64,000 bases of DNA from Cyanobacteriota bacterium. Lineage in GTDB: Bacteria > Cyanobacteriota > Cyanobacteriia > PCC-6307 > Cyanobiaceae. Under the pieces are notes generated by a model that saw only the letters and a list, made by a program, of their open reading frames with translations, was not told the origin of the DNA and searched no databases. Positions 12,111 to 55,689 of this stretch are shown here, piece by piece (within the stretch, counting starts at the first letter, position 1; every line of letters starts with the position of its first letter). The position numbers and the translations under genes were made by a program. The stretch spans positions 32,001 to 96,000 of the forward strand of contig JBJOMY010000002.1 of NCBI GenBank assembly GCA_046052125.1, read 5' to 3'.

Positions 12111-12114
12111 GCGC

Positions 12115-37704: not shown

Positions 37705-38598
37705 GTGATCTCGGTGGATGGCCTGGCCGCCCTCGATCACCTCATCTGGTTGCGCACCGGTCAGCGCGCGGCAGAGGCGCTCGCTTGCACGCAGCCCACC
37801 GTGAGCCGCAACAGCCGCAAGTGCCTGGATGTGTTCGAACTGGAGCTGGAACGCAGCCGCGGCGAATGGCGACTTCTGGGTGACACCCAGCTGATCAAGC
37901 TTGAGCGCCTTGTGCATCAAAAGCAGCGCTGGGCCCGCAATCTCACACTGCGGCTTGAAGCGCAGCACTGGTCGGCGCCTGGGCTGGATGGACTTGAGCT
38001 GGCGAACTGGCAGCGCGGCAACTTCAACCAACTCGAGTACGAACAGCCGCTCGCGTTGCTCGAAGACGGAGTGATCGATGCCTGGATCTGCTCCGCTCCC
38101 GATGCTCCAGTGCGGCCAGGCCTCACGGGCCTACGCCTCACCACCATGCCGATGCACCTGATGGTGCCCCGCGGCCATCCCCTGGCCGAACGACGCAGCC
38201 CCATCGCCTGGGAGGAGTTGCTGCCTTATCCGGTGCTACCGCTGCCAAGCGGCAGCTTCCCGATCTTTGAAGCGGTGCTGCAGCGCTGCAGCTTGCTGCC
38301 GTGCCCTGAGCGCACTCAAGCCATCAAGGCCTCCGGCTGGTACGGGCAGAGACCCACCGAAGCGATGCTGATCGCCTACTCCTCACCGCTCACGCTGCAG
38401 CTCTATGGCGACGCCTGGGTGCGACTGCCCCAGAAGCTGCCGGTGGAGGTGGGCGATGTGTTGATGGTGCGCGAGGAGTTCAGCGATCACCCACGCACGC
38501 AACAACTGCTGCGCAAGCTTCTCGATCATCTGGCCGAGCTGGCTGCGCCCCACAGCGATGTGATGGTGCATCATGCACCGGCGGCTTACGTCGTGTAA
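37705..38598 (+). CDS. LysR-type transcriptional regulator (divergent)
   Basis: N-terminal HTH (AAEALACTQPTVSR) and substrate-binding motif LMVPRGHPLA. Confidence 0.8.
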   Translation: MISVDGLAALDHLIWLRTGQRAAEALACTQPTVSRNSRKCLDVFELELERSRGEWRLLGDTQLIKLERLVHQKQRWARNLTLRLEAQHWSAPGLDGLELANWQRGNFNQLEYEQPLALLEDGVIDAWICSAPDAPVRPGLTGLRLTTMPMHLMVPRGHPLAERRSPIAWEELLPYPVLPLPSGSFPIFEAVLQRCSLLPCPERTQAIKASGWYGQRPTEAMLIAYSSPLTLQLYGDAWVRLPQKLPVEVGDVLMVREEFSDHPRTQQLLRKLLDHLAELAAPHSDVMVHHAPAAYVV

Positions 38599-38605
38599 TC
38601 GGCGT
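38585..38605. repeat. att-like direct repeat, left copy
   Basis: CTTACGTCGTGTAATCGGCGT, identical to 50076-50096. Confidence 0.9.
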
Positions 38606-38754
38606 CTTGCTCGCCCATCCCTCTGCGCCTGCCGCTGCAGAGCTTTGATGGCTTTACGGATCTCAGCGGCATAGTACCAACCGCTTCTGGACCACTGCTT
38701 GAGGATCCACCCACCTCACTGGAGGCAATTGGTCCTCTGATGTCAGGTCAGTGC

Positions 38755-39054
38755 TCAGTAGTTGTCCCCGTACTTGAGTCCAGAGGCGGCATCCATCAGT
38801 TCCACCGTGGTCTGATGCCCCTGCGCCACAGTCACCTCGTGCTGGATGCCGATGTCCCGCAGTGCCTTGATGTCGAACTCAGGCGCGGTGATCCAACTGA
38901 AACCCTTACCAAAGGTGTTGTCGGGATTCACCACATACCAATGGCAGGCAGTGTCGGGGACGGCGACAGAGCATTTGGTCCAGTCGTTATCCCACTGAGG
39001 CACCTGAACGAAGGAGAGGGCGGCGAATAGGAAACCAAACAGACTGGAGAACAT
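38755..39054 (-). CDS. Small secreted hypothetical protein
   Basis: Hydrophobic N-terminus, QVPQWDNDWTKC...CHWYV. Confidence 0.7.
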   Translation of the reverse strand: MFSSLFGFLFAALSFVQVPQWDNDWTKCSVAVPDTACHWYVVNPDNTFGKGFSWITAPEFDIKALRDIGIQHEVTVAQGHQTTVELMDAASGLKYGDNY

Positions 39055-39255
39055 GCCGCTTTTACATTTCTCAATATCCTAGGCGGTATCTGGGTTTTCC
39101 TTCGCCAATGGGTTGAACGGGCGTGTATCGGGCATCCCGATTTGCTTCCTCAGGATGGTTCTTTTGAGGGCGTCCCTGGAAGCATTGCCTGAGCGGTAAC
39201 TGCAGTGTCTGGCACTGGATTCTGGCTTGAGGACACTCGATGTACTGTGCGCTTG

Positions 39256-39497
39256 ATGGCAAAGCAAGTCCGTCTGACCCTCGCCAAGGCAAATCTGCGC
39301 CGTGCTGAGGCAGGGGAGAAATCCATCACCATGAACTCGTTGGCGACTCAGGCAGGGGTGGCGGCAACAACCATCACTCGCTTGGCAAGAACCGACGACA
39401 AGGCGGCATCAGCACTGTCACTAGACCTGGCATCCAAGATTGGACGGTGCTGGATTGTGAGATTGAAGATCTTCTGGAAGTAGTGGTAGCGGATTAG
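39256..39497 (+). pseudogene. Cro/C1-type HTH regulator with an apparent frameshift near 39440
   Basis: SLATQAGVAATTITRLAR...LSLDLASKI, then the family-like tail (TVLDCEIEDLLEVVVAD*) continues in another frame. Confidence 0.65.
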
Positions 39498-40414
39498 TTC
39501 TCCAACTCCAGGAAGAAATCCTCATCCATTCTCCGGATCACGAATGTCTGCTTTGTTGAAACGCCGATGCCGTGTTTGAGCATCAGTTCAGACATTCTCT
39601 TACCATCAACAAGAATGATTCTGCGGTCAGTCAGTGTCTTGACGTATTCCTGGGCGGGTTGAGCAAATGTCGAGGTGGTCATAATCACACCTTTGGAAGC
39701 ACCAACCCCTGCAAGCGCACCCACAAAACCTTGAATAACGGGTCTCCCAACTGACCCCTCCCATCGCTTTGCCTGGATATAAATGCGATCAAGACCAAGG
39801 TGATCTTGGTTTACGACGCCATCGACGCCACCATCTGCACCACGGGCAACGCCTTGAACGTCTTCCATTGACCCGCCATATCCCATACCAACAAGCAGGC
39901 GCAACACCAACTGCTCAAATCCCTCAGGGGGCAACTGCTTGACTCGATCCAAGACCTCATCTTGAAGTTCACGTTGGATTCGCCTCACGCCCTTCTCAAT
40001 CTGTTCTTCTGGTGTCAGATCATCATCAATATCGCCTGATTCAATCAGATCTTGCTTGCCATTTCTGGTAGTCGAGATGAAGTCATTGAACTGCTCGTAA
40101 GACCGAAGGAACTCAGCGTCGATTGCGGCAGGCGGATTTGAGAGTAGATCTTTGCCGCTTTGACTGATGACATAAGTTGCTCGACGTGGGCGTTCGATCA
40201 ATCCTGCCTTAAACAGATAGGTTCGTGCCCACCCCATTCGATTATCAAAGGCAGTTTGTGTTCCACTGGGCAGGCGTTGACTCAACGCTTCAGCGCTCAG
40301 ACCAAGGTGATCTGCGACGGCATCCCGCATCTGATTGGTTGTGAGTTCGCTGCCACCACCCATCACCTTGAGGAGAGGAAGCATCAGAGTGTGATATTGA
40401 GGAATGCTGTTCAT
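39494..40414 (-). CDS. mrr: Mrr-type (type IV) restriction endonuclease
   Basis: Mrr N-domain (IPQYHTLMLPLL, FDNRMGWARTYLFKAGLI) and catalytic DGGVDG...YIQAKRW; ATGA overlap with the hsdR stop. Confidence 0.93.
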   Translation of the reverse strand: MNSIPQYHTLMLPLLKVMGGGSELTTNQMRDAVADHLGLSAEALSQRLPSGTQTAFDNRMGWARTYLFKAGLIERPRRATYVISQSGKDLLSNPPAAIDAEFLRSYEQFNDFISTTRNGKQDLIESGDIDDDLTPEEQIEKGVRRIQRELQDEVLDRVKQLPPEGFEQLVLRLLVGMGYGGSMEDVQGVARGADGGVDGVVNQDHLGLDRIYIQAKRWEGSVGRPVIQGFVGALAGVGASKGVIMTTSTFAQPAQEYVKTLTDRRIILVDGKRMSELMLKHGIGVSTKQTFVIRRMDEDFFLELEN

Positions 40415-43400
40415 TCGCCGACGCCTCCCAACTGACCGCCCATATTGCTTGTAAGTGCATGAGCGACAACCGCCTGAATCTTCTTGCCAAGATCCTCTCT
40501 CGACCACTCCTCAGAAATCATCTCGGTCTGCTGGAGCACCAACTCAATCGCTGCTGCTTCCTGATCAGGCGGATACTTGTAGCGTTTGAGCAGTGCCTTG
40601 ATCATCGTTCGCAGTCGTGCCCGAACGTTTTCCTTGTATTGCCAGTCGATGCTGAGGTTGCCTCTGAGTTTTTCTGCCAGTTCCCTTGCCATCTTCATCA
40701 GCACCTCATCACCCATCAGATCGTGTGCTGACTGGTTGTTCGCCAGGGCGTCGTAGAAGGCGACTTCGGCAACCGACAATCCCATTGCTTCGACTTTCTC
40801 CGCCTCATCACGGAACTGCTTTGCCATGGCAATCAGTTCCTCGATCACTTGTGCCGCCTCGATGGAGCGGTTGGCGTATTTGTTGAGAGACGCCTGGAGC
40901 AGTTCGCTGAACCGCTTCTGCTTGACCACGTTGGTCTTGAAGCGTGTCTGAACTTCCTCTGCCAGCAACCTCTGGAGCAGTTCAACCGCCAAGTTCTTCT
41001 GAGGGATCTTGCTGACTTCTGCCAGGAACTGATCCGACAGGATGCTGATGTCTGGTTTTTCAAGACCTGCCACCTTGAAGACATCAGTGATTCCATCTGC
41101 CACCAATGACTCAGAGAGCAGTTGGCGCAACTGAAAATCAACATTTTTAGGAGCAGATCCGTCGCCCCCTGCGTCATCGCCTTTGACTAGTGGTGCTCGG
41201 ATCGCCTGAAGGAAGGTCACCTCATCATTCAGTGCCATCGCTTCATCAGTCGTGCCGCACAAAGCAAATGCCTTAGTCATCGCCAGCACGGTGTCGCAAT
41301 ATCGCTTCTTCCCATCGGGCATCGCCAGGATGTGATCCAGGCAGTTGGGCAGCAGTGCCATTGCTGTCTTGGGATCCCTGAATCCACTCCAGTCGATGGG
41401 ATGCAGGAGGTCATGGGCAACCCGGAGTTTCTCCTTGAGGATCCTCAGCGCCTCACTGTTATCGATGGTGGGAGCACCCTTGCCCTTGGCAGCAGTGTAG
41501 GTCGCCAGTGCTTCTTTGAGTTGGGGGGCGATGCCGATGTAATCGACCACCAGACCGCCTGGTTTGTCTTTGAACACCCTGTTCACTCGGGCAATCGCCT
41601 GCGCCAGGTTTGCCCCCTTCATCGGTTTATCCACATACATCGTCGCCATACAGGGAGCGTCAAACCCCGTCAACCACATATCCCGCACCAGCACGATCTT
41701 GAGAGGATCAGCGGGATCCTTGAACCGTTTCTCCAGATCCTTCTTCTGCTGCTTGCTGGTGTGGTGAGGTTGGAGGTGGGATTCGTCTGATGCCGATGCC
41801 GTCATCACCACCTTGATGGCACCCTTCAAATGGTCGTCGTCGTGCCAGTTAGGGCGTAGGGCAACGATGGCGTCATAGAGGCGAGCACAGATATCCCTGC
41901 TCATCGCCACCACCATCGCTTTGCCTGGTTGGGTGCGTGAGCGTTGCTCGTAATGGGCAACCAGATCCGCTGCCACTTGCTTCAGGCGTGGTTCAGCACC
42001 CACGAGTGCTTCCAGTGCTGCCCACCTGCTCTTTGCCCGCTCAGCAGCAGGGATGTCGTCTTCATCAGCGAACAGGTCATCGACCTGTTCATCCACCTGC
42101 GGCAGCAGCGGTTCTTTGAGCGCCAGTTTTGCCAGGCGTGACTCGTAGTAGATCGGCACCGTGGCACCGTCTTCCACTGCCTGCTGGATGTCGTAGACGG
42201 AGACGTAGTGCCCGAAGACCGCCTGGGTGTCACGGTCGTCTTGGGAGATGGGCGTTCCCGTGAAGGCAAGGAAGGTCGCCTGGGGTAGAGCATCCCGCAA
42301 CGCCTTTGCTAACCCGTATTTGATCTCCCCTGTCTTGGTGTCGAAGCGACCCTTGAACCCGTATTGGGTGCGGTGTGCCTCGTCGCAGATCACCACGATG
42401 TTGTGGCGTTCGGTCAGGGCAGGGAACTTGTCTTCATCAGGTTCGGTAGCGAACTTCTGAATGGTGGTGAAGATGATGCCGCCACTGGGTCGGTTGGCGA
42501 GCAGATCCCTGAGTTCCTGGCGACTCTCTGCCTGCTTGGGGGATTCGCCCAGCAGGTCACCCGCCCCAGCAAAGACCCCGAACAGTTGCCCATCCAGGTC
42601 TTGACGGTCGGTGACCATCACCAGGGTGGGGTTCTCCAGGCGTGGATCGGTAAGCAACTTGCCCGCCAGACACGCCATCTCGATGCTCTTGCCAGCGCCC
42701 TGGGTGTGCCAGACCACCCCACCCTTCTTGTCACCATCAGGTCTGCTTGCTTCCACCACCCGCTCCACTGCTGCCCTGACGGCGTGGAACTGGTGGTAAG
42801 CAGCGATCTTCTTGATGATCTGCCCGTCTTCCTCAAACAGGCAGAAGGAGCGCACGAACTCCAGCAGTCGCCCCTGATCGAAGATGCCCCGCACCAGGGT
42901 CTCCAGATCACGGTGAGCACCCAGCGGATCGAGGTGGTTCTCGCCGTCGATGGTGCGCCAACGTTGGAACCGCTCCCGATCAGCACTCAGCGACCCCAAC
43001 CGTGCCTGGATACCATCGCTGATCACCAGCAGCACATTGGGCGTGAACAGGTCGGGGATGTCTTGCTTATAGGTCTGGAGTTGGTTGAACGCTGCCCAGA
43101 TGTCTGCCTTCTCATCGGCAGGGTTCTTCAGTTCGATCACCGCCAGCGGCAGACCGTTCACGTAGATCACGACATCAGGGCGGCGGTTGTGTTTGGTGCC
43201 CTGGATCGCCAACTGGTTCACCACCAACCAATCGTTGGAAGCAGGGTCATCGAATCCGATCACCTTGAGACGGATGCCCACCTGCTGGTTCCCATCCATA
43301 TAGGTGATGGGTAAACCCTGGGTCATCCAACGGTGGAAGTTGCGGTTGGATGCCAGCAGACCAGGCACGTTGGGGTTCGCCAGTTGGAGCACCGCTGATT

Positions 43401-43602
43401 CGATGGTGCTTGCTGGAACTTCAGGGTTGAGGCGTTGGAGTGCTGAGCGCAGACGCCCCGTGAGGATGACTTGCCTGAAGTCAGTGCGTTCTGGTGAGGC
43501 GCCGTCGCTGTCGAGTTGGGGCGCGAAGACGTGGGTGTATCCCAGTTCCTGGAACCACTCAAGGCACTGCTGCTCCAGATGGTCTTCTGTGATCAAGGCC
43601 AT
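40411..43602 (-). CDS. hsdR: Type I restriction endonuclease subunit R
   Basis: RRPDVV...IELKNP nuclease, WHTQGAGKS, DEAH, FTGTP, MWLTGFDAP, QAIARVNR; start MALITED at 43602. Confidence 0.96.
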   Translation of the reverse strand: MALITEDHLEQQCLEWFQELGYTHVFAPQLDSDGASPERTDFRQVILTGRLRSALQRLNPEVPASTIESAVLQLANPNVPGLLASNRNFHRWMTQGLPITYMDGNQQVGIRLKVIGFDDPASNDWLVVNQLAIQGTKHNRRPDVVIYVNGLPLAVIELKNPADEKADIWAAFNQLQTYKQDIPDLFTPNVLLVISDGIQARLGSLSADRERFQRWRTIDGENHLDPLGAHRDLETLVRGIFDQGRLLEFVRSFCLFEEDGQIIKKIAAYHQFHAVRAAVERVVEASRPDGDKKGGVVWHTQGAGKSIEMACLAGKLLTDPRLENPTLVMVTDRQDLDGQLFGVFAGAGDLLGESPKQAESRQELRDLLANRPSGGIIFTTIQKFATEPDEDKFPALTERHNIVVICDEAHRTQYGFKGRFDTKTGEIKYGLAKALRDALPQATFLAFTGTPISQDDRDTQAVFGHYVSVYDIQQAVEDGATVPIYYESRLAKLALKEPLLPQVDEQVDDLFADEDDIPAAERAKSRWAALEALVGAEPRLKQVAADLVAHYEQRSRTQPGKAMVVAMSRDICARLYDAIVALRPNWHDDDHLKGAIKVVMTASASDESHLQPHHTSKQQKKDLEKRFKDPADPLKIVLVRDMWLTGFDAPCMATMYVDKPMKGANLAQAIARVNRVFKDKPGGLVVDYIGIAPQLKEALATYTAAKGKGAPTIDNSEALRILKEKLRVAHDLLHPIDWSGFRDPKTAMALLPNCLDHILAMPDGKKRYCDTVLAMTKAFALCGTTDEAMALNDEVTFLQAIRAPLVKGDDAGGDGSAPKNVDFQLRQLLSESLVADGITDVFKVAGLEKPDISILSDQFLAEVSKIPQKNLAVELLQRLLAEEVQTRFKTNVVKQKRFSELLQASLNKYANRSIEAAQVIEELIAMAKQFRDEAEKVEAMGLSVAEVAFYDALANNQSAHDLMGDEVLMKMARELAEKLRGNLSIDWQYKENVRARLRTMIKALLKRYKYPPDQEAAAIELVLQQTEMISEEWSREDLGKKIQAVVAHALTSNMGGQLGGVGE

Positions 43603-43788
43603 GGGGTGAAGCCAGAGATTTTGCCAGTGGTCGATGGCTTGGCCCTGCCTCTTGCCACCTGCCACGCGGAGAGGCCAGACGAGCCTGGGATGCCTGGCTC
43701 AGGGAAAGCCTTAAATACGAGACCGACTGGGGCCCAGGCGGTTTGGGGGATTGGGCGGCGGCGGCGGTGGGTTGCCATTAAAAAGGCC

Positions 43789-45198
43789 TCATGCCCAGAA
43801 AGGGAGGTAGCGGGCGAACTTCCGTGAGGCGCCGACGCTGCCGTCCGGCTTGATCAGATTGGCCTCAATGGTGGCTGAAATGACCTGGGACGTCACGGCG
43901 GCCTTCTCCTCTCCAAGCCGAAATCGCTCTCTAAGCGTCTGATTAGACATCCGCTCGCCCATCACCCACCGGAGAGCGCAGTGTTGATAACAGGCTCGAA
44001 CCCGGTTGTTCCGGTCCATTTGGTCAAATGGAAGGGGGCCGAAGATCGTGACAATCGTGCGGCGGAAACCTGCGTGAAAATCTGGAGCAGGGAGTTGATA
44101 CACCTCAGCGGCATCAACCACCCGATCAATACCGCTGCTCTTCTCCTCGCAGATGCCGAAGCGACGCATCAGATCAGCAAGATGTTCATTGCGAGATTGA
44201 TAGCCATCGATGAAGCGCTCTACAGGCACAAGGGGTTCGCCCGGATTGGAGATCTCAACGCGATTGGCGAAGATGTCGATCATGACAGAAGCCCCAGCGA
44301 CAACGAAGTCCTGATGAATTAGGGCATTGGCCAAAAGCTCACGAATCACAACATCTGGAACGAGCTTAACCTCTTTGCGCAAGGCGCGCTCAATGATTTC
44401 ATTCTGCGGCAGTTGTGCATAGATGTAGTTCACAAATTCCTGAAAGCCAACGGCGTAACCGCGATCAAAAACGTGATCCAGCTTTGTTTGCAACTTGGAT
44501 GGCCCTGAGTAGACGACAACGCGCGCAGCTTTACGTGATAGATCAGGGAAATCACTCAGTCGGCGAGCCAGTAAAAGCGCACCAAGACGTCGAATGGTGT
44601 AGCTGCTGCCTTCATAATCGACAAGCTTTTCTGCCGTGAGCCTGTCAAGAACGCCTACGCGATCTGTGGGATAGGGCAACCGCAGAAGCTCAAAAAAGGT
44701 TTGTGTATCGAGCAGCTCTACAACCTCCTGAGCATCCAGACCTCGTCGGGAAGGCTCTTCGAGCCAATCAGGTTGACCTTCAGAAAAAATGCGCCTCAGC
44801 TGGTCTTCGCTCATCGGCACCAACGCTTCGCCTGCGCGCATCAAATATTTGCCTTCCAGGTTGTAAGCCGTTCCGCGGGGACGTGATGGAATGTGAAAAA
44901 CAAGAACACGTCCATCTGGATGAACAACGGCCTCGATATCGACTCTGAATCCAACGGCCTTGAACAGTTTTTCTGCTGCTGCAACCGTGTCTGGGAAGGC
45001 TTGAGTGCTGACAACCTGGCGTGGAGGTTCATCTGCGATTCCAAGAAGAAGCACACCGCCACCCTCATTGGCCAGGGCCACGCAGTATTCATTCAGTTTG
45101 CGCGTGTCAAACTGATGCTTCGCTTCCTTGAATTCCAACCGTTGGTGCTCAGAGGCCGCTTGCCGCCAGAGATCAATCTGCTGTGGGGTCGTGCTCAT
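43789..45198 (-). CDS. Schlafen/AlbA_2-domain protein with a HATPase-like middle region and C-terminal wHTH-like region
   Basis: SEHQRLEFKEA...VALANEGGGVLLLGIAD; RELLANALIHQD, EISNPG, SRNEHLADLMRRFGICEEKSSG. Confidence 0.85.
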   Translation of the reverse strand: MSTTPQQIDLWRQAASEHQRLEFKEAKHQFDTRKLNEYCVALANEGGGVLLLGIADEPPRQVVSTQAFPDTVAAAEKLFKAVGFRVDIEAVVHPDGRVLVFHIPSRPRGTAYNLEGKYLMRAGEALVPMSEDQLRRIFSEGQPDWLEEPSRRGLDAQEVVELLDTQTFFELLRLPYPTDRVGVLDRLTAEKLVDYEGSSYTIRRLGALLLARRLSDFPDLSRKAARVVVYSGPSKLQTKLDHVFDRGYAVGFQEFVNYIYAQLPQNEIIERALRKEVKLVPDVVIRELLANALIHQDFVVAGASVMIDIFANRVEISNPGEPLVPVERFIDGYQSRNEHLADLMRRFGICEEKSSGIDRVVDAAEVYQLPAPDFHAGFRRTIVTIFGPLPFDQMDRNNRVRACYQHCALRWVMGERMSNQTLRERFRLGEEKAAVTSQVISATIEANLIKPDGSVGASRKFARYLPFWA

Positions 45199-46499
45199 GA
45201 CAGCATCCCCTCAAGCATCTTCTCGGCATCAGGGATTCGGATTTGACCTGAGATGAGTTTGGAAAGGAGGGTATCCCTGGTTGTTGCGAGATCTTTGGAT
45301 TGCTTCCGTAAACCAAAGACTCGATCCAGAAGAGGGGCAAATGCTGAATCCATCGCAGCAAGAAGAGATGGTGTGGGGATCAGCGCCTTAGCCTCACTTA
45401 GATGATGCCTTTGGATGTGCCCCATCGTTGTCGCTTTCCCCTGGGCGATTTCCTGAAACTCAGGCAGATGGTGCTTGACCCACTGAAGGAAGAACCACTT
45501 GTCGTAGGTCTTGGATGTGACCTTGAAGAGGTGCTGGTTCAGAGCACCATCACCTCCACACCACATATCAACAGCAAGAGAACCAGACCAGGAGAACAAC
45601 ACATCACCATCCCTAACTACATAGTCGGATGGAACTGCTGTCGAGCACCTGTCTGCCCCAATGGAATCGCCCTTCTTTAGTTGAGCGATCTTGATCACTG
45701 GAAGCGTTGGGTTGCCGTCTTCAGGCGGGAACTTCTGTAGGGCAAGACCATTGAGGAAATGAGCGACCTCATCCAATGACTTCACTTTCCACCCACTAGG
45801 AATCTCGCCGTGTTCCGAATCCTCAAATGAATCTTGGAACAGGTCGCTGATTTCTGCTGGCAATCCAGTAGGGCGACCTTCTGCCTTCGCTCTGACTGGA
45901 TCGAAATCCACAAACCACGACTTGAAGAGCGCCTTTGCCATCGCCTCCAAGGTTTCGTTGGTCTTGCGGTTCAGTTCGATCTTGTCATCAAGGGTGCCGA
46001 GGATATGAGCGATTGCTTTCTGTTCATTGAAGGGTGGCAAGTCAATCTCAACCTGCTTCAGTTCCCTGACTGAAAGGTTGCCCTGAACGGAACCATTATC
46101 CAGTTCTCTGGCAATGGTCTTCCCAGTTGATCCGCTCAGGATGTAATAAAGAAAATCACGGGATACGTTTTGCTTTGGTCGAATGATGACAAGAGACGAT
46201 GCTATCGCCCCTTTCTGAATGCCCTTCGCAAGACCGATCTTTCCAAGAGATCCACGAAGGCAAAACAAGATATCGCCCTTCTCAATCTTTCCATTACCAA
46301 GCCGATCGTATGCCCCTTGCGAAATAAAGGTTGCCCCCGACAGGTCTATGCGCCTACCGTCAAGGTCAGAGGCGCTGACAAACGGTATTCCGCTGGCGAC
46401 ATAATCAGAAGAGGATGGGTAGTTCTTCCCCCTGTCGCCATTGATGAAATCAGCAGCGTTGTCGAGAGTAGAAGTCGACCAACTAAAATCAGAACTCAT
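45195..46499 (-). CDS. hsdS: Type I restriction-modification specificity subunit
   Basis: Two TRDs with conserved spacers ([46 protein letters not shown]). Confidence 0.95.
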
Positions 46500-48375
46500 A
46501 TCCCAACCTCCTCAGATTCTCGGCAATCTGCTGATCCAACTTCGCCCCCTCTTCCTGCTGCTGCTTGAGCAGAGCAGTGAGGCGCTTCATCTTCTGATCA
46601 AAGGGTTCGTCGTCGTCATCCTGATCTGCCGCTCCCACATAGCGACCAGGTGTGAGCACAAAACCATTCTTCTCAATCTCATCTAACTTGGCGCTGTAGC
46701 AGAATCCAGCAACATCCTCATAGACATCAGATACCTCGCCATCACCACGCCAGGCGTGAACAGCACCAGCAATCTTCTCAATATCCTCATCCGTTAGCAC
46801 CCGTTCAACCCTGGTCTTCATCGTGCCCATCTGACGGGCATCAATAAAAAGCGTCTCTCCACGACGATCACGACCACGCAGGGTCTTGTCATTCGTCAAG
46901 AACCACAAGCAAACAGGAATCTGAGTGTTGAGGAACAGTTGACCAGGCAGTGCCACCATCACCTCAACCACATCACCACGCACCATCGCTTCACGGATCT
47001 GCCCCTCACCGCTCTGGTTGGAACTCATCGATCCATTTGCCAGCACTACACCTGCTTCACCACCAGGGCGTAGTTTCCAGAGCATATGTTGCAACCACGC
47101 ATAGTTCGCATTGCCTACAGGTGGTCGCCCGTAGACCCAGCGTGGATCACTTTCGTATTTCTCCCCGCCCCAATCCGAAATGTTGAACGGTGGATTAGCA
47201 AGGATGTAGTCGAACTTCTGATCAGGGAACTGATCTCTGGCAAAGGTGTCAGCAGGTTCCTGACCCAGATCCGCAGCAAACCCACGGATCGCCAGGTTCA
47301 TCGCTGCCAACCTCCAGGTGGTTGGGTTGCTCTCCTGCCCATAGATCGAAGCGTCATCACGCTTGCCCCCGTGCGCCTGGATGAACTTTTCGCTTTGAAC
47401 GAACATTCCACCTGAACCGCAGCAGGGGTCATAGATCCGACCCTTGTGCGGTGCCAGCACAGCAACCAGCGTTTTGACGACGTGAGCAGGCGTATAGAAC
47501 TGACCTCCCTTCTTGCCTTCTGCGCTGGCGAACTGACCGAGGAAATATTCGTAGACCTCCCCCAGCACATCACCCGAACGCTGGTCGTCAGCAAATCCAA
47601 TGGTGGAAATCAGATCTACCAGTTCACCCAGACGCCCTGGTTCCAGTTGAGCGGCACCAAACCGCTTATCCAACTTGCCCCGCAGGGTCGGGTTCTCGTT
47701 CTCGATGGCGACCAGTGCCCGATCAATCAGTTGACCGATATCAGGTTGCTTTGCCCGTGCCCGTAGCGACTCCCAGCGAGCATCAGCAGGCACCCAAAAC
47801 ACGTTCTCTTGGGTGTAGTAGTCACGATCCTCCAGTGCTGCTTCGTGATCGGCAGGGTCATCACCGATGTAGAAGTCAGAGTCAGGCGAACTGACCATTG
47901 CCAGCACCTTCGCCCGATGCTCGGCAAACGTGTCTGAGATGTATTTCAGGAAGATCAGACCCAGAACCAGATGCTTGTATTCCGCCGCATCCATCTGGGC
48001 ACGGAGTTTGTCGGCGCTCGCCCAGAGAACTGCCTTGAAATCCTTGGCGGGTGCTTCCTTCTTCGCTCGACCTCGACCGTTACCTGCTGCTGGTGCTGAG
48101 GGTGCCTCGTAGCGACTGCCGCCAGGGATCCCATCTGCCAACCCAATGGCACCCCCACGCCCCCGACCCTTGCGGATTATTCCCAGGGCAAGCGCCTTTT
48201 CCTTGACTGCCTCGTACTCCTCTTCGCTGATCTGGCGCTCTGCTGCTCGACTCAGCGCCTCCCGTGCCGACTGGTTCCCGATGGTGCTGCCATCAGGGGG
48301 GAGCACCTCCAGGAGCAGGTCACTCAGTTCTGCTTCCCCTGCGTCGGGTGTGGTGAAAGTCGCTGAGTCGGTCAC
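46489..48375 (-). CDS. hsdM: Type I N6-adenine methyltransferase with an ~110-aa N-terminal extension
   Basis: [24 protein letters not shown] (motif I), ANPPF (motif IV), LTPGRYVG. Confidence 0.95.
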
Positions 48376-48493
48376 TGGGACTGGATGCTTCCGCCCATTT
48401 TCGCCGCTGCGCCTTGGTTTTGCCCGTTATGCGCTATTCGCATAGACCAACGGCGCCTGTGGTGGGAACTCTGAGAGCAGTCGCACTGATCCG

Positions 48494-48712
48494 ATGACCA
48501 CACTCACCACTGGTGCCCTGGCAACCGAGACCCTGATCGCCTCGCTCCTTGCCCTGGAAGACCTGACCAACCGCCTGACGGTGCTAACCCTCAATGCCTC
48601 TGGATGCCCTGAGCAATCCCCCAGGGTGCGGGCGCTGCTGGCAGACCTGGCGGATGCCCTGAAGCGATGTGAGGAGGATCTGGGGACCTATGCCGCAGCA
48701 AACGACACCTGA
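48494..48712 (+). CDS. Small helical hypothetical protein
   Basis: 72-aa Leu/Ala-rich ORF divergent from hsdM. Confidence 0.6.
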   Translation: MTTLTTGALATETLIASLLALEDLTNRLTVLTLNASGCPEQSPRVRALLADLADALKRCEEDLGTYAAANDT

Positions 48713-48716
48713 CGGT

Positions 48717-48971
48717 TCAACGCCTCTCGGTGATGGGTTCCCATTCCGCCTTAATCCCGATGTCGGGTGCTCCTGACTCTTTGTTGGTCTTCTCCATCCA
48801 CTGTGACCTCACGATCCTGTGCCCCTTAAGCACCTGCCGCATTCCTGCTGGTGCTTTGGCGGCGGCGCAGGAGGTGCCACCGTCCCTACAGGCGCTGGAT
48901 GCTGAGCGGTCCCTCTTGCTCCCACACCCCGCCAGCAGCAGCACCCCAAGGAACAGGGCAACCCGCTTCAT
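48717..48971 (-). CDS. Putative lipoprotein
   Basis: MKRVALFLGVLLLAGC lipobox; ATG overlaps the upstream stop (ATGA). Confidence 0.6.
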   Translation of the reverse strand: MKRVALFLGVLLLAGCGSKRDRSASSACRDGGTSCAAAKAPAGMRQVLKGHRIVRSQWMEKTNKESGAPDIGIKAEWEPITERR

Positions 48972-49150
48972 CGCTTGTGAGCAGTCTTTGCCCAGATCCG
49001 CTCCAGGGTCTTGCGGAACTCGCCCTCGCTCAAGGGTCGTGCCAGATCTCGCTTCCTGACGGTGCTCCAGATCCACCAGACCTGAAGACCGCCAAAGGCA
49101 AGGGCGAACAGACCCAGTTGGAGGTACCCAGAGTTCAGATGCTCCATCAC
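48968..49150 (-). CDS. Small membrane protein with LERIWAK motif
   Basis: One TM helix then FRKTLERIWAK. Confidence 0.7.
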   Translation of the reverse strand: MMEHLNSGYLQLGLFALAFGGLQVWWIWSTVRKRDLARPLSEGEFRKTLERIWAKTAHKR

Positions 49151-49323
49151 GCCGTCTGCTGGTCCTTTGCCCAGATCCGTTCCAAGGACTGCCTGACCTG
49201 ATCGGTTCTGGAGGTAGCGCCCAGCACTCGCTTGCGGAACAGGGTGGTCAGGCGCCAGAACTTGACTCCAGCAGCAAGGGCAAAGACCGCCCAGGGCACC
49301 AGCATCCAGAGCGGGTTGCTCAT
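49147..49323 (-). CDS. Small membrane protein with LERIWAK motif
   Basis: MSNPLWMLVPWAVFALAAG...VRQSLERIWAK. Confidence 0.7.
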   Translation of the reverse strand: MSNPLWMLVPWAVFALAAGVKFWRLTTLFRKRVLGATSRTDQVRQSLERIWAKDQQTA

Positions 49324-49535
49324 CCCCTGTTCAACGCCCACCGCAGTGCCCCCAGACCGATCGAGAGTCCCACCATCGTGTTCCAGGCGATTGCCCTGCG
49401 GGTGCTGAGGCGCAGCAGGAAGGGCGGCAGGGTCTGATGGCGACTCAGCAGCAGGGCGGTGCTGATCAGGAGGTAGGCAGCGGGGATGCCCAGTGCCAGC
49501 AACAACTCAGTCGTCACAGCGGGGTCTGCTGCCAC
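49320..49535 (-). CDS. Small two-TM membrane protein
   Basis: Two hydrophobic segments; stop overlaps the next start. Confidence 0.6.
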   Translation of the reverse strand: MAADPAVTTELLLALGIPAAYLLISTALLLSRHQTLPPFLLRLSTRRAIAWNTMVGLSIGLGALRWALNRG

Positions 49536-49581
49536 TGGTGAAACGGTAGTGACGCTCCAGGGAGGCGCCCGATCGGAACCC

Positions 49582-49620
49582 TTGACCCCACCACCGCACC
49601 ACAGGTAGTACAGGTGTACC
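49582..49620 (+). promoter_or_regulatory. Promoter with a cyanobacterial LexA box over the -10 element
   Basis: -35-like TTGACC (49582-49587); AGTACAGGTGTACC (49607-49620) fits RGTAC-N3-DGTWCB. Confidence 0.7.
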
Positions 49621-49632
49621 CGCCCGCCTCAG

Positions 49633-49899
49633 ATGCCTGCTGCTCGTCCCGTCGCCTCTGGCGCCCCTGCTGAAGAGTGGGACTACCTGGATGTGGATGT
49701 CCTTCGCCCTGCCCGTTCAGGTGCCGTCTGTATCACCTGCCAGCACTTCCGTTACGAGGTCGGCAGGCACTGCGTCACGGTGCTGACCTGCCCGATCCAT
49801 CAGGGTCTTATCCCCCAGGGTGAGCACCTGACTAAGCGGTGCGCTCAGTGGGTTGCTCGGCGGGAGGTGGCGGTTGGGTGGCGCCCTGAGACGGGGTGA
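49633..49899 (+). CDS. Small Cys/His-rich putative metal-binding protein
   Basis: CITCQHF...CPIHQGLIPQGEHLTKRC. Confidence 0.75.
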   Translation: MPAARPVASGAPAEEWDYLDVDVLRPARSGAVCITCQHFRYEVGRHCVTVLTCPIHQGLIPQGEHLTKRCAQWVARREVAVGWRPETG

Positions 49900-50075
49900 A
49901 ACCGCTTTGCTTACGGAGAAATCATTTGCCCCGCAATGGGTTTGCGGGAATGACCTCGACCTGAACGTAAGCACTACCCTGATCGACACTGGGTTTTACG
50001 TCTGTCTTCTCCGTAAGCGTTGCGTAAGCGTCGATCTAAGGTCCCCCAGATCCCTTGCGGCAGAACGGGTTTGCC

Positions 50076-50096
50076 CTTACGTCGTGTAATCGGCGT
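50076..50096. repeat. att-like direct repeat, right copy (3' end of argJ)
   Basis: CTTACGTCGTGTAATCGGCGT encodes ...ADYTT* of argJ on the - strand. Confidence 0.9.
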
Positions 50097-51306
50097 TGAT
50101 GCGCACGTATTGATCCGACAGGTCACATCCCCAGGCGCGACCCTGCCCTGAGCCTTCACCCACCTGCAGGCGGATCACCACGGTGTCGTCACGGAGGTAG
50201 GCGCCGGCAGCGCGATCGCGCATGTAGGCAGAGGCGGCAGAGCGATCAAAGGCCAGCGGCTGACCGGCTGCCATCAGCTGGTGATCGCCGAGCCACAGGG
50301 CCACGGCGTCGGGATCGAAGGGCACACCGGCCCGGCCGGCAGCCGCCACGATGCGCCCCCAGTTGGGATCGCGGCCGTGCACGGCACATTTCACCAGCGA
50401 CGAACCGCAGATGGTGCGGGCGATGGCGCGGGCACCGGCATCGTCGGCTGCCCCCTCCACCAGCACCTCGATCAAGCAGGTGGCACCTTCGCCGTCGCGG
50501 GCGATCGCCTTGGCCAGATGTTGCGACACCGCCGTCAGGCCAACCTCCAACGCATCGAAGTGCTCGGGGCTCAGGGGCTCACCGGCTGCAAACGCCAGGT
50601 ACGTGTCGTTGGTGCTGGTGTCGCCGTCCACCGTGATCGCATTGAAGGAGCGATCCACCGCCCGCTTCACCATCGCCTGCCACGCATCCGCCGGCACGCC
50701 GGCATCGCAGCTGAGGTAGCCGAGCATCGTGGCCATGTTGGGGTGAATCATTCCCGACCCCTTGGCCATCCCGCCGATGCGCACGCGGCGGCCGCCCAGC
50801 TCCGCCTCCAGGGCGATCTGTTTGTCGATCAGATCGGTGGTGAGGATCGCGGTAGCCGCTGCCGCACCGCCCTCGGGGCTGAGGGCCTCGGCCAGTGGGT
50901 CGAGCCCCGCAAGGAGGGTGTCCATGGGGATCGGCACGCCGATCACGCCGGTGGAGCAAATCAACACTTCATCCGGGGCCAAACCCAGGTGATCCGCCAT
51001 GGCCTGGGTGGCGCGCAGGCTGTCGATCAGGCCGCGATCACCCGTGCAGGCATTGGCCTGCCCTGAGTTGCTCAGCACCGCACGGGCGCGGCCGCCGCTG
51101 GCCTGCAGGCGCTCAGCACAGAGGTCGACGCATGCGGCCCGCACCAGTGAGGTGGTGAAGGTGCCAGCGCAGACAGAACCTTCCGGGGCCAACAGCAGTG
51201 AAAGATCAGGCTTGCCGGAGGCCTTGAGGCCAGCGGTGATGCCAGCCGCCAGGAAGCCTTCAGGAGCCGTGACGCCTCCGGGAATCGACTGCCAAGAGTG
51301 GGGCAC
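50077..51306 (-). CDS. argJ: Glutamate N-acetyltransferase / ornithine acetyltransferase
   Basis: SNSGQANACTG, AKGSGMIHPNMATML, DGDTSTND, DGEGAT, NADYTT. Confidence 0.97.
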   Translation of the reverse strand: MPHSWQSIPGGVTAPEGFLAAGITAGLKASGKPDLSLLLAPEGSVCAGTFTTSLVRAACVDLCAERLQASGGRARAVLSNSGQANACTGDRGLIDSLRATQAMADHLGLAPDEVLICSTGVIGVPIPMDTLLAGLDPLAEALSPEGGAAAATAILTTDLIDKQIALEAELGGRRVRIGGMAKGSGMIHPNMATMLGYLSCDAGVPADAWQAMVKRAVDRSFNAITVDGDTSTNDTYLAFAAGEPLSPEHFDALEVGLTAVSQHLAKAIARDGEGATCLIEVLVEGAADDAGARAIARTICGSSLVKCAVHGRDPNWGRIVAAAGRAGVPFDPDAVALWLGDHQLMAAGQPLAFDRSAASAYMRDRAAGAYLRDDTVVIRLQVGEGSGQGRAWGCDLSDQYVRINADYTT

Positions 51307-51352
51307 AGACGAGGTTGTTGCTGCACCAATCCTCCTCCCGAACTGGGCCCGC

Positions 51353-51535
51353 TCAGCTTTTGCGCCAACGGATAAACATGGGGATCAGCACCAGGCCCAC
51401 CAGGAGACCCACGGGGTTCTGAAGCACCACCCAGCCGCAGACTCCCACGGAGAACATCAAGATCACGCGAGCCATCACTCGCCCGGATCGACTTCGGTAG
51501 AAACCGCGGCTATAGACAGGGTCGTAGAGGGCCAC
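51353..51535 (-). CDS. Possible small membrane protein
   Basis: Hydrophobic ILMFSVGVCGWVVLQNPVGLLVGLVLIPMFI; start uncertain. Confidence 0.4.
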   Translation of the reverse strand: MALYDPVYSRGFYRSRSGRVMARVILMFSVGVCGWVVLQNPVGLLVGLVLIPMFIRWRKS

Positions 51536-51556
51536 GCAGCCTCCCTGCAAAACCAG

Positions 51557-52258
51557 ATGACTCACCCATCTTGGAAACGCTGGCAGGGATCGCAACGGCG
51601 CATTGGCCTCACCGGCGGCATTGCCACCGGGAAGAGCACCGTGGGGCGCTGGCTGGAGCAGCAGGGCCTGCCGGTGTTGGATGCGGATGTCTACGCCCGT
51701 GAAGCGCTCAGGCCAGGAACCGCTGCCACCAAAGCCGTTCTGGAGCGTTACGGAGAACGCGTTGAGTCAACGAGCGGCGAAGGACAGAGCGCTGTGATTG
51801 ATCGAGGGGCTCTTGGAGCAATCGTGTTTCATGACCCCGCCGAAAAGGCTTGGCTCGAAGCCCTGATCCACCCTCTGGTGCGCGCACGCTTTGAGCAAGA
51901 ACTCACCGGCTTGAGCCACGAGACCACGGTGGTGTTGATAATCCCCCTGCTGTTTGAAGCGGGCCTGGAGGAGCTGTGCAGCGAGATCTGGCTGGTGGAT
52001 TGCACAGAGAACCAGCAACTGGAGCGACTGATGCAGCGGGATGGACTGAGTGAGGCGGGGGCCCAGGCACGGATCAACGCGCAGTGGCCAATGGAGCAGA
52101 AACGTCGACTGTCGGACCACCTGATCGCGAACCAGGGAGATCCAGAAGCTCTGGTGCGAGAGCTTCGCGATCAGCTCGGCTTAGGCGGCTCAGGGGTATT
52201 CCTGGATTCCACCAGCTCAGTACGGGGCAATGGATCCTGCTGGCGATCGGCCACATAG
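51557..52258 (+). CDS. coaE: Dephospho-CoA kinase
   Basis: IGLTGGIATGKST, LDAD, LIHPLV, IPLLFE. Confidence 0.94.
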   Translation: MTHPSWKRWQGSQRRIGLTGGIATGKSTVGRWLEQQGLPVLDADVYAREALRPGTAATKAVLERYGERVESTSGEGQSAVIDRGALGAIVFHDPAEKAWLEALIHPLVRARFEQELTGLSHETTVVLIIPLLFEAGLEELCSEIWLVDCTENQQLERLMQRDGLSEAGAQARINAQWPMEQKRRLSDHLIANQGDPEALVRELRDQLGLGGSGVFLDSTSSVRGNGSCWRSAT

Positions 52259-52440
52259 GTTTTGCACAACCGAGCCCCGATGTGGTTATCGGTCCTGGAA
52301 ACGTAGTCACTCTCCCGGCCCAGGTTGCCGAGATGCCTGCGCCTATACATCCGGCAGTTGATCTCAACCAGCAGGAAGAAGATCGATACGAAAGAAAGAC
52401 AAAAAGCCAGAACGACATCGGAGCGTCCTAAGCCTGAGCT

Positions 52441-53913
52441 TTAGCCCTTGAGTTTCTGAGTGAGGATCTGGTTCGCGAGCTTTGGATCTGCCTTGCCGCC
52501 GGTTTTCTTCATCAGCTGACCGACAAAGAAGCCCTGCAGCTTGGTCTTGCCGCCGCGGAAGGCTTCCACCTGTTCTGGGTGCGCCGCCAGCAATTCCTCA
52601 ACGATCGCTGTGATCGCCGCCGGGTCACTGATCATTCCCAGACCGCGCTCTTCGACGATCGCCGCCGGTGAGCCCCCCTTCTCCAGAAGCTCGGGCAGGA
52701 TCTCCTTGGCGATCTTGCCGCTGATCGTGCCGCCGTCGATCAGCGTGACCATCTCCGCCAGCTGCTCCGGGCGGAAGGCGAGCTCGGAGTAGCTGAGGCG
52801 ATTGGCATTCACATAGGCGGCGATATCGCCGGCGATCCAGTTGGCCACACCCTTGGCGTCTGCCCCGGCCGCCACAGCAGCTTCAAAGAACTCCGCCATC
52901 GGCCGCTCATCGGTGAGCACACGGGCGTCGTATTGCGAGAGTCCGAATTCCTCGGCGTAGCGGTGACGCTTGGCCGCCGGCAGCTCCGGCAGCTCAGCGC
53001 GCCAACCCTCGCGCAGATCGGCACCCACCTCAATCGGGCCAAGATCCGGATCGGGGAAATAGCGATAGTCGCTGGCGCCTTCCTTACCGCGCATGCTCTT
53101 GGTGAGCTGTTTGCCCTCATCCCAGAGGCGGGTTTCCTGCACCACCGGCTCTCCGGTTTCGTAGGCCTTGATCTGGCGCTGAATCTCGTATTCACAGGCC
53201 CGTTGGATGGCAGAGAAGGAGTTCATGTTCTTGATCTCCACCTTCGTGCCGAAGGGCGCATCAGGCCCGCGGCGCACGGAGATGTTCACATCGCAGCGCA
53301 GGGAGCCCTCCTGCATATTTCCGTCGCTGACCCCCAGGTACCGCATGATCCGGCGGATCTCGGAGGCGTATTCCGCCGCCTCACGGCCCGTGCGGAGATC
53401 GGGCTTACTGACGATTTCAGCGAGGGCCACACCGGCGCGGTTGTAATCCACCAGTGAATGGGTCGAGCCCGCCAGGCGGTCACTGCCGGCATGCACCAAC
53501 TTGCCGGCGTCTTCCTCCATGTGCAGGCGCTCAATGCCGATGCGCTTGAGGTAGCTGTCTTTGCCTTTTTCAGCCACCTCGACTTCGATCCAGCCGTCTT
53601 CAGCGATCGGCTCATCGTATTGGGAGATCTGGTAGTTCTTCGGCAGATCGGGATAGAAATATTGCTTACGATCGAACTTGCTGTGCTCAGCGATGTTGAG
53701 ATTGAGGGCCATGGCCGCCTTCACCGCATACTCGAGCACCTTCTGATTGAGCACTGGCAGGGTGCCGGGCAGCCCGCACACCACAGGATCAATGTGGGTG
53801 TTGGGGTCATCACCGAAGGCAGTCGAGGCGCTGGTGAAGATCTTGCTGTTGGTCCCCAACTGCACGTGGGTCTCCAGGCCGATCACTGCTTCCCAGGCCG
53901 CCTCAGCTGCCAT
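52441..53913 (-). CDS. gatB: Asp/Glu-tRNA amidotransferase subunit B
   Basis: IGLETHVQL, RKQYFYPDLPKNYQISQ, HMEEDAGK, DYRYFPDPDL. Confidence 0.98.
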   Translation of the reverse strand: MAAEAAWEAVIGLETHVQLGTNSKIFTSASTAFGDDPNTHIDPVVCGLPGTLPVLNQKVLEYAVKAAMALNLNIAEHSKFDRKQYFYPDLPKNYQISQYDEPIAEDGWIEVEVAEKGKDSYLKRIGIERLHMEEDAGKLVHAGSDRLAGSTHSLVDYNRAGVALAEIVSKPDLRTGREAAEYASEIRRIMRYLGVSDGNMQEGSLRCDVNISVRRGPDAPFGTKVEIKNMNSFSAIQRACEYEIQRQIKAYETGEPVVQETRLWDEGKQLTKSMRGKEGASDYRYFPDPDLGPIEVGADLREGWRAELPELPAAKRHRYAEEFGLSQYDARVLTDERPMAEFFEAAVAAGADAKGVANWIAGDIAAYVNANRLSYSELAFRPEQLAEMVTLIDGGTISGKIAKEILPELLEKGGSPAAIVEERGLGMISDPAAITAIVEELLAAHPEQVEAFRGGKTKLQGFFVGQLMKKTGGKADPKLANQILTQKLKG

Positions 53914-54006
53914 GTCCCGTCTCCAAGCGTGCCTCGATCCTATGGAAGAGGCCCTGGGGCCAGGGGTCCGTCAAGCTGAAACACTTAACCCTGCTCCCAA
54001 CGCTGC

Positions 54007-55116: not shown

Positions 55117-55172
55117 AGCCATTCCACAAAACTTTCCGACAGATCGCCCTGATGCCCCAGGCTTTTGCGACA

Positions 55173-55204
55173 TAAAAAAGCCGGGGTGCTCTCGCAACCC
55201 CGGC
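55173..55204 (-). terminator. Rho-independent terminator of ndk
   Basis: A tract then GCCGGGG...CCCCGGC hairpin on +. Confidence 0.75.
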
Positions 55205-55230
55205 CGGGACCGTGCTCTGAAAGGGCTTGA

Positions 55231-55689
55231 TCAGCCTTCGACGCGCCAGGTCTGATCAGAAGGGGTCCAGTCGCTGAGCTCAGAGGCCTGGAACCAGAGA
55301 CCGATCTCGAACTGGGCGGTTTCCGGGGCGTCGGAACCGTGGATCACGTTGCGGCCGATGTTCACGGCCAGGTCACCACGGATGGTGCCGGGCTCGGCCT
55401 CGAGGGGCTTGGTGGCACCGATCAGCTTGCGGGCGCTGGCGATCACGCCGTCGCCTTCCCACACCATCGCCACCACGGGGCCGGAGGTGATGAAGTCAAC
55501 GAGGCCAGCGAAGAAGGGACGCTCACGGTGCACGCCGTAGTGGCTCTCGGCCAGCTCACGGCTGGGGGTGAGCTGTTTGAGGCCCACCAGCTTGAAGCCC
55601 TTGCGCTCGAAGCGGCCGAGGATCTCGCCCACCAGCCCGCGCTGAACACCATCGGGCTTGATGGCAACAAAGGTGCGCTCGGCAGCCAT
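55231..55689 (-). CDS. ndk: Nucleoside diphosphate kinase
   Basis: [30 protein letters not shown]. Confidence 0.98.

Follow-up and report, generated by a model that had tools for sequence, protein, structure and literature searches.

Introduction

The avoidance of restriction sites was reportedly treated in the older work of Sharp, of Karlin, of Gelfand and Koonin, and of Rocha. Short palindromes are known to be avoided in phages, plasmids and host genomes, and type II words are under-represented at the DNA level on both strands, with a greater deficit in DNA that enters new cells (PMC4687349). The 11.5-kb genomic island described here, which lies at positions 38606-50096 (one repeat copy counted) of a 64,000-nt stretch of cyanobacterial DNA (the window), between a lysR-like gene and argJ, whose ends overlap, and carries a predicted type I restriction-modification (R-M) system, shares these properties. 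It differs in that the bearer is a chromosomal defence cassette without a mobility gene of its own in this genome, and in that about ten tetranucleotides, including the degenerate RGCY, are near zero family-wide in hosts of 27-66% GC. We consider it rather likely that the pattern reflects sustained restriction-site avoidance in a defence island that moves horizontally among picocyanobacteria.

In the immigration control region of Escherichia coli K-12, hsdRMS, mrr and mcrBC occupy a hypervariable chromosomal locus that is exchanged between strains. The island has in common with it a type I system and mrr side by side, but it lacks mcrBC and is a discrete insertion with a 21-bp repeat, and we know of no reported tetranucleotide purge in the E. 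coli region. Tycheposons are cargo islands of Prochlorococcus with an inward-facing tyrosine integrase beside a tRNA gene, including Ser(tga), and with cargo for adaptation or phage interference; the main text of the preprint does not contain the word restriction (bioRxiv 10.1101/2020.12.28.424599). One relative of our cassette, at locus L002, has this integrase/tRNA-Ser layout, whereas an integrase, a tRNA target and a replication module are all missing from the window's island. In text searches of the literature and in the tycheposon preprint we found no description of an R-M cassette whose own DNA is purged to the degree of the most depleted phage, of a set including degenerate RGCY, family-wide across hosts of 27-66% GC, and that encloses a non-purged module. 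Avoidance as such is known; what appears new is this bearer, with the strength and breadth of its purge.

Depletion of short words in the island

Direct counting in 38645-43596 (4952 bp, GC 0.558) gave GGCC 0, AGCT 0, CCGG 2, CGCG 2 and GATC 47, and in 45200-50075 (4876 bp, GC 0.567) GGCC, AGCT, CCGG and CGCG were all absent and GATC again occurred 47 times. For the four words this confirms the counts that a preliminary description of this DNA had given, and its statement that the flanking host DNA is rich in them, with GATC still common in the island, agrees with the hundreds of copies found in the left host DNA (38644 bp; GGCC 514, AGCT 274, CCGG 336, CGCG 266). The middle piece between the two stretches (43597-45199, 1603 bp, GC 0.551) holds 15 GGCC, 9 AGCT, 5 CCGG and 10 CGCG. 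We define the depleted DNA as window 38642-43596, with small open reading frames (ORFs), mrr and most of hsdR, plus window 45155-50135, with hsdS, hsdM and further small ORFs, together 9.9 kb of 56% GC. The left stretch is free of GGCC and AGCT, its exceptions being CGCG at 38884, CCGG at 39533 and 41422, and CGCG at 43522, and the right stretch has none of the four words in 4981 bp. The limits of the depletion are sharp: the last site before the depleted DNA is an AGCT at 38641, site density is normal in 43597-45154, and after the zero sites of 45155-50135 the next one follows at 50136.

From dinucleotide content, 57 GGCC, 40 AGCT, 45 CCGG and 35 CGCG are expected in the 9.9 kb, against 0, 0, 2 and 2 observed. 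Further words are low (observed/expected: AGCC+GGCT 4/95, TGCA 6/61, CATG 6/67, AATT 1/25), GTAC is also nearly absent, and RGCY as a set, by the same expectation, is found 4 times instead of 192. GATC (96/56, enriched), TCGA (46/40) and GCGC (43/44) are not depleted. Per-gene counts showed GGAC and GTCC to be missing from mrr, hsdR, hsdS and hsdM, so that the 22 copies counted in the depleted DNA are confined to its 2.6 kb of small-ORF sequence. The four words singled out in the preliminary description were right, the depletion is stronger than it stated, and the list was incomplete, as all RGCY words, TGCA, CATG, GTAC, AATT and GGAC/GTCC are purged as well. On the coding strand AGCC, GGCT, GGAC and GTCC each occur 0-2 times per gene; non-palindromic words are lost on both strands alike, and the constraint acts on double-stranded DNA.

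A codon-shuffled null and a scan of the genome for similar regions, both proposed earlier for this DNA, confirmed that the counts are not at expectation and that the island stands apart. Synonymous codons were shuffled 300 times within each gene, which keeps the protein sequence and the codon usage. For hsdM the observed zero was reached by 0, 0, 0, 0, 1 and 0 of the 300 shuffles for GGCC, AGCT, AGCC, GGCT, CCGG and CGCG, respectively, and for hsdR by 0/300 for each word, while the embedded AlbA_2 gene and the flanking argJ, coaE and lysR-like genes had counts at expectation. Over five cassettes the codon-shuffle tests gave z = -5 to -9. Genome-wide, the four words occur 88,989 times in 2,640,321 bp, or once per 30 bp, and the four longest site-free gaps of the 2.64-Mb genome (4982, 2100, 1889 and 649 bp) all lie within the island, the fifth measuring 547 bp.

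Some observations concern the surroundings of the depleted DNA. The host DNA of the window (1-38000 and 50136-64000) is strongly GATC-enriched, with 409 copies against 155 expected in the left 38 kb, and the enrichment is weaker in the depleted island DNA (96/56). The word GCGATCGC has 12 copies in the same host DNA and 0 in the 9.9 kb of depleted DNA. Two other low-GC stretches, window 18000-21000 and 58000-61000 (50-55% GC in a genome of 65% GC), are island-like and not depleted of the four words.

Maintenance of the depletion

Compared with its closest relatives, the window shows a synonymous divergence (dS) of 0.38-0.51 in hsdR and hsdM; the value rises to 1.33 against locus L022 and is saturated against Prochlorococcus. 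The hsdR genes of the window and of locus L016 are separated by 216 synonymous codon differences, yet they hold 5 and 1 forbidden words. An equal number of random synonymous changes creates a mean of 55 such words (minimum 41), with 0/300 simulations reaching the observed value, and the outcome was the same for hsdM and for locus L018 (0/300 in three comparisons). As the simulated gain lies far above the observed one, new sites are being removed, and the purge is actively maintained by selection and not inherited once.

The words could alternatively have been C-methylated in earlier hosts and lost by deamination of 5-methylcytosine, since GGCC, AGCT, CCGG and CGCG are classical targets of C5-methyltransferases, and enzymes of this kind, one of them with a Vsr neighbour, occur in the family. 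In alignments that covered 411 RGCY sites of ameliorated relatives, the word found in the window departs from RGCY at just one position in 285 cases, and only 103 of these differences are transitions in the central GC, against 129 outer transversions and 53 central transversions. In place of CCGG the window mostly has CAGG or CCTG (30 central-position transversions) and hardly ever the deamination products CTGG and CCAG (4). This substitution pattern, the loss of AT-rich and adenine-type words and the strand symmetry argue for selection on double-stranded DNA and against 5-methylcytosine decay. With AATT, CATG, TGCA and GTAC lost too, the purge complete in coding DNA and the simulations showing removal of new sites, we regard mutational decay as very improbable.

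Insertion of the island and its embedded module

In G137, a genome of the same genus, the lysR-like gene and argJ abut and the 21-mer is present once, which is the empty site; the 11.5 kb are therefore a discrete insertion. In the window, the left copy of a perfect, att-like 21-nt direct repeat (38585-38605) covers the lysR-like stop region and is 100% identical to the right copy (50076-50096), which covers the argJ stop region, at a spacing of 11491. The limits of the insertion coincide with those of the purge within 60 bp. Two metagenome contigs bear on the same borders, each being a single contig and weak alone: in a contig of run X3 the eight letters before 50076 are those preceding the left repeat, i.e., the empty-site form, and a contig of run X5 stops at 38605. 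In other genomes of the genus this site is empty, keeps remnants (o92 and o99, two of the small ORFs) or holds a different island.

The interruption of the depleted DNA corresponds to a 1.6-kb insert with normal site density (43591-45208) between hsdS and hsdR, which contains a minus-strand gene for a 469-aa protein with the Pfam domains SLFN_AlbA_2 and HATPase_c_4 (43789-45198). In contigs of two further metagenome runs, position 43590, 43593 or 43602 is followed by 45209 with no more than 13-25 other letters in between, and this insert-free join has the hsdS-hsdR spacing of loci L016, L018 and L006. The host-like site density and the insert-free contigs thus show that the AlbA_2 segment has a history of its own and entered the purged operon later. 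In a second, non-purged type I clade (L081), the same slot is occupied by an AlbA_2 gene of 77% identity. A duplicated hsdR start at the insert was considered and rejected, the similarity extending over only 20 nt and not being convincing.

Related cassettes and their word sets

A scan of one genome per species gave 69 loci, for which identity refers to HsdR. The 47 relatives with at least 76% identity come nearly all from picocyanobacteria (Cyanobium, Synechococcus, Prochlorococcus), and their hsdR genes contain at most 2 GGCC+AGCT in 17 cases, 3-18 in 22 and more than 30 in 8. Among distant relatives (53-67% identity), 19 of the 22 have at least 21 such sites in hsdR. The clade-wide nature of the trait was judged by these identity classes together with the site counts. 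In the relatives, too, the purge ends at the cassette edges and the flanks are normal.

The lost words differ between lineages. In unbiased codon-shuffle tests, the freshwater cassettes (window, L016, L018, L022) had lost RGCY, GGAC/GTCC, CGCG, CCGG, TGCA, CATG and GTAC, and the marine Synechococcus cassette L028 had lost RGCY, CGCA/TGCG (1 observed, 42 expected), CGCG, TGCA, CCGG and GCGC. In hsdM-hsdS-hsdR of L028 (7157-13090) the whole set YGCR is missing, a degenerate word set for which we know of no enzyme. The Prochlorococcus cassette L025 lost RGCY, and the losses of L023 are confined to CGCG, CCGG and GCGC. No near-total losses were detected by codon-shuffle tests in L063 (64% GC) or in the outgroup L048. 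The words gained are RGCR/YGCY (AGCA, GGCA). The flanks of L025 carry DUF805, TPR, SNase and TerB genes and no mobility gene.

Metagenome contigs with about 66-98% HsdM identity, including putatively marine ones of 27-36% GC, are clean (e.g., 0/92, 0/68, 2/53, 5/46), and counts are at expectation in relatives of about 60-69% identity, whose contigs have 45-68% GC. In genome G072, a different type I family (42% HsdM and 34% HsdR identity) is flanked by the same small ORFs, and about 14 kb there are nearly RGCY-free and poor in CCGG and CGCG. The second type I clade in the same family (51% HsdR identity) resembles the host in GC and is normal in its counts, and the ameliorated copies L063 and L069 are intact with normal counts. 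The function of a type I system therefore does not need the purge.

Two loci showed features of their own. In L051, from a Pyrinomonadaceae metagenome-assembled genome, a distant hsdR (10001-13111; 57% identity, 56% GC) has no GGCC but 44 CGCG and 39 GCGC, a single-word avoidance that is unrelated to the picocyanobacterial pattern. In L002, two tandem hsdS genes (6824-8985) share repeats of 235 nt (89%) and 81 nt (85%), and downstream of hsdR there is an 80-nt copy (96%) of a segment from within that gene, which suggests reshuffling of specificity genes and the remnant of a second cassette.

Horizontal movement and distribution

A close ortholog of the cassette is present in about 23 of the 201 sampled genomes of the bacterial family. 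Within the window's own genus it was found only in G000, of 12 sampled genomes; the closest copies (94%) sit in other genera, and several genomes keep remnants only. At locus L016 the dS of the cassette is 0.43-0.45 compared with 0.68 and 1.28 for flanking core genes, and at three other loci it is 0.43-0.62 compared with 0.72-0.73. In L002, a P4-type tyrosine integrase gene adjoins tRNA-Ser(tga), faces inward and lies inside the depleted DNA, with no site in its three 500-bp bins, and a tRNA-Ser gene also stands at the edge of the purged DNA in L018. Relatives of the L002-type integrase occur in 44 of the 201 genomes, and a close copy together with the cassette in G088 and G109 only. Parts of the window stretch were recovered near-identical in 24 metagenome runs of 15 studies from fresh, estuarine and lagoon waters, and contigs cover hsdR and hsdM at a likeness of at least 95%.

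HsdR fragments with 74-83% identity (G189:C1:1704681-1705094, G006:C17:565-1020, G064:C3:95152-95265, G063:C21:162-494) lie in genomes without the full gene, some with stop codons, and look like remnants of lost cassettes.

Possible selecting agents

The host chromosome has the words at or above expectation (GGCC 507/430), and its genome holds two N6_N4 and one Dam-like methyltransferase genes and no C5-methyltransferase gene. The presence of mrr in the island had led to the proposal, in the preliminary description, that the element shuns host-methylated words lest its own Mrr attack them. Such an enzyme would cut the whole chromosome, in which the words occur once per 30 bp, and the host has no C5-methyltransferase gene to mark them. 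Moreover, mrr is present in only four mapped loci (L021, L022, L039, L041), and the mrr-less cassettes L016 and L018 are equally clean. The clean cassettes without mrr contradict the proposal, and we find it scarcely credible.

An unannotated ORF adjoins some of the C5-methyltransferase genes of the family, and a Vsr gene adjoins one. An attempt to derive their specificity from solved relatives was abandoned as uninformative, because they are equally distant from M.HaeIII, M.HhaI and DNMT1. R.CviJI of chlorella viruses recognises RGCY and is, to our knowledge, the only nameable enzyme type whose recognition set equals the most widely purged set (AGCT, GGCC, AGCC/GGCT); the likeness is in the word set only, a CviJI-like gene not having been sought here.

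Independent evidence for the same pressure comes from cyanophages. Among eight cyanophage stretches, RGCY is low in S-SRM01 (13 observed/274 expected), S-SZBM1 (77/428) and P-RSM4 (17/120), reaches about half the expected count in two others and comes close to it in the remaining three, and CCGG is low in five of the eight (0/52, 0/12, 1/15, 2/16, 4/25). As in the island, RGCR/YGCY are raised. The 40.5-kb stretch of the freshwater Synechococcus phage S-SRM01 (L075) is also poor in CATG (22/189), GATC (38/148), TCGA (29/79) and GTAC (39/93).

The agreement with cyanophages allows for another origin of the purge, in which a cassette without the words cut by cyanophage nucleases would survive infection or lysis and still work, or be taken up by neighbours. 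The depleted DNA does hold defence genes, its words match those that cyanophages avoid, and selection acting on the resident copy would account for so strong a purge without calling for numerous transfers. The enzymes are, however, already present as proteins when the phage enters, so there is no obvious gain from intact genes, and since depleted phages keep sites (13 RGCY in 40 kb of S-SRM01), a nuclease of their own would cleave them. Protection does not extend to the AlbA_2 module within the operon, the second type I clade of the same family is unpurged, and we know of no such word-specific cyanophage nuclease. Protection from phage nucleases is, in our opinion, quite improbable.

How the purge could be sustained

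Under restriction-site avoidance by a moving defence island, the reading we favour, the island would be a member of a pool of defence cassettes that moves horizontally among picocyanobacteria. Each entry into a new cell would expose the incoming double-stranded DNA to the frequent-cutting restriction systems of the recipient, and copies bearing the recognition words would be cut. The persisting lineages would have lost, and would keep losing, RGCY, CCGG, CGCG, TGCA, CATG, GTAC, AATT and, in the hsd and mrr genes, GGAC/GTCC, and the lost words would be replaced by any synonymous alternative. We infer restriction enzymes as the selecting agent from the pattern of the losses, and what may be said of the identity of these enzymes and of the route and frequency of transfer is conditional in the same way.

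Several findings weigh against this reading. Its weak point is quantitative: only filtering that is both frequent and stringent could keep RGCY at 4 copies where about 190 are expected. With a word-rich chromosome and no C5-methyltransferase gene, the present host drops out as the selecting agent, and in the family such a gene was found in only 25 of the 201 sampled genomes, with specificities that are not readable from sequence. Pfam scans revealed no integrase or other mobility gene in the window's island, and in the window genome the L002 integrase has no homologue, a single weak match being all that was found for tyrosine recombinases. A second copy of the tRNA end was not found in L002 at up to 3 mismatches. 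The integrase family was rejected as carrier of the depleted DNA, the G057 integrase (66% identical) lying in normal DNA with 249 GGCC against 203 expected. Carriage by a phage or plasmid was rejected as well: neither the 50,697 phage records nor IMG/VR nor plasmids contain a close copy of the cassette, with hsdR matches of only 24-39% identity in phage records, none in IMG/VR and partial DNA matches of 60-80% in plasmids. Finally, the window's other low-GC islands are not purged, their longest four-word gaps being 276 and 328 bp.

A serious rival is a reservoir replicon with an infection-like life. The purge would have been made and kept in an unsampled replicon that is restricted in every generation (a phage, satellite or plasmid) or in a host lineage with resident frequent cutters, and the chromosomal copies would be recent, separate imports that have not yet decayed. 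In strength the purge indeed equals that of the most depleted cyanophage (RGCY 4/192, compared with 13/274), and chromosomal copies exist at every stage of decay, with 17 clean, 22 intermediate and 8 normal among the 47, up to full amelioration. The L002 integrase stands beside tRNA-Ser within depleted DNA, the different type I family of G072 with the same small ORFs is also depleted, and the low-GC, putatively marine metagenome contigs made of the cassette alone are clean. The missing close copy in phage records, IMG/VR and plasmids counts against this explanation too, depleted flanks extend beyond the island at no locus examined, and no capsid, packaging or replication gene adjoins any copy examined. 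On balance we hold the reservoir to be unlikely.

The same evidence divides the view of the preliminary description that the backbone is actively transferred, phage- or satellite-like DNA purged of type II words. That the DNA is mobile and purged is upheld by the 21-bp repeat, the empty site, the patchy relatives, the lower dS, the L002 integrase and the words of the cyanophages, whereas the phage- or satellite-like nature is not borne out: we found no capsid, packaging or replication gene, no integrase in the window's island and no close copy in phage records or IMG/VR.

A bolder extension of restriction-site avoidance, which we put forward tentatively as possible but doubtful, is that picocyanobacteria harbour widespread undescribed frequent-cutting restriction activities with degenerate four-base specificity (RGCY, the set of chlorella-virus CviJI, and YGCR in marine lineages) that shape both cyanophages and defence islands. 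The near-zero counts would not be maintainable by rare chromosomal transfer and would therefore imply an infection-like rate of movement, e.g., packaging in phage particles or vesicles as a satellite-like element that would bring restriction systems from one cell to the next.

R-M systems are usually seen as barriers to gene flow, and here the DNA of an R-M system itself appears to bear the mark of selection to pass such barriers, a direct sequence evidence of defence cassettes as mobile entities that compete with other restriction systems. Picocyanobacteria are globally important primary producers with few described restriction enzymes, and the avoided words may be read as a fossil record of their restriction landscape. 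The avoidance of RGCY and CCGG common to the island and to cyanophages points to specific enzymes to look for. Mobile defence DNA could be detected simply by its site-free stretches, and these could also guide the design of DNA for the transformation of picocyanobacteria that are hard to engineer.

Genes of the island and its flanks

The large genes of the island, mrr, hsdR, the AlbA_2/HATPase_c_4 gene, hsdS and hsdM, are all on the minus strand, with small ORFs at both island ends. The mrr gene (39494-40507) is predicted to encode a type IV methylation-dependent restriction enzyme, with both the N-terminal winged-helix domain (Mrr_N, PF14338, 4.5e-29) and the nuclease domain (Mrr_cat, PF04471, 2.1e-33) detected by Pfam and a PADLOC match to mREase_IV (1.6e-78). 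By their domain content, hsdM-hsdS-hsdR are assigned to a type I R-M system. The restriction subunit HsdR (1084 aa; 40411-43665) has the nuclease, SF2 motor and C-terminal domains (HSDR_N, PF04313; SWI2_SNF2, PF18766; T1R_D3-like, PF22679; T1RH-like_C, PF11867; PADLOC REase_I, 1156 bits). The specificity subunit HsdS (434 aa; 45195-46499) matches Methylase_S (PF01420) in two stretches and PADLOC Specificity_I (1.7e-113, residues 17-432), and the methyltransferase HsdM (628 aa; 46489-48375) matches HsdM_N (PF12161, 3.2e-23), N6_Mtase (PF02384, 3.2e-104) and PADLOC MTase_I (2.1e-189). Relatives in which hsdM and hsdR are 79-94% identical differ more in hsdS, which is 32-66% identical.

On the host side, the lysR-type regulator gene (37705-38598, plus strand; LysR_substrate) has a 78% identical copy that directly abuts argJ in G137, and argJ (50077-51306, minus strand; ArgJ, 4.1e-139) has normal site counts. 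The insertion target is the lysR/argJ overlap, the window containing no tRNA gene. Pfam scans of the island and its relatives detected no capsid, packaging, replication or phage-interference genes, and no primase or helicase was seen among the ORFs scanned there.

The small ORFs o99, o72, o60, o64, o71 and o88 have no Pfam or PADLOC family match. At the left end, o99 (99 aa; 38755-39054, minus strand), which is conserved beside the cassettes of relatives, has copies of 77-88% identity in L007, L033, L039, L041, L066 and G050, and o92 (92 aa; 39205-39483, plus strand) gives a weak helix-turn-helix signal below the cut-off (HTH_26, E 0.059). Copies of o92 adjoin hsdR or mrr in L016, L018, L021, L022 and L039, and the unrelated type I family in G072. 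The block at the right end (48494-49899) consists of o72 (48494-48712, plus), o60 (48968-49150, minus), o64 (49147-49341, minus), o71 (49320-49535, minus) and o88 (49633-49899, plus). Copies of o60, o64, o72 and o88 accompany the cassettes of relatives, and o60, o64 and o72 also accompany the different type I family of G072. At locus L090 of genome G050 (1477-2483), copies of o92 and o99 with intermediate site density adjoin argJ without any hsd gene, which looks like the island minus its restriction genes.

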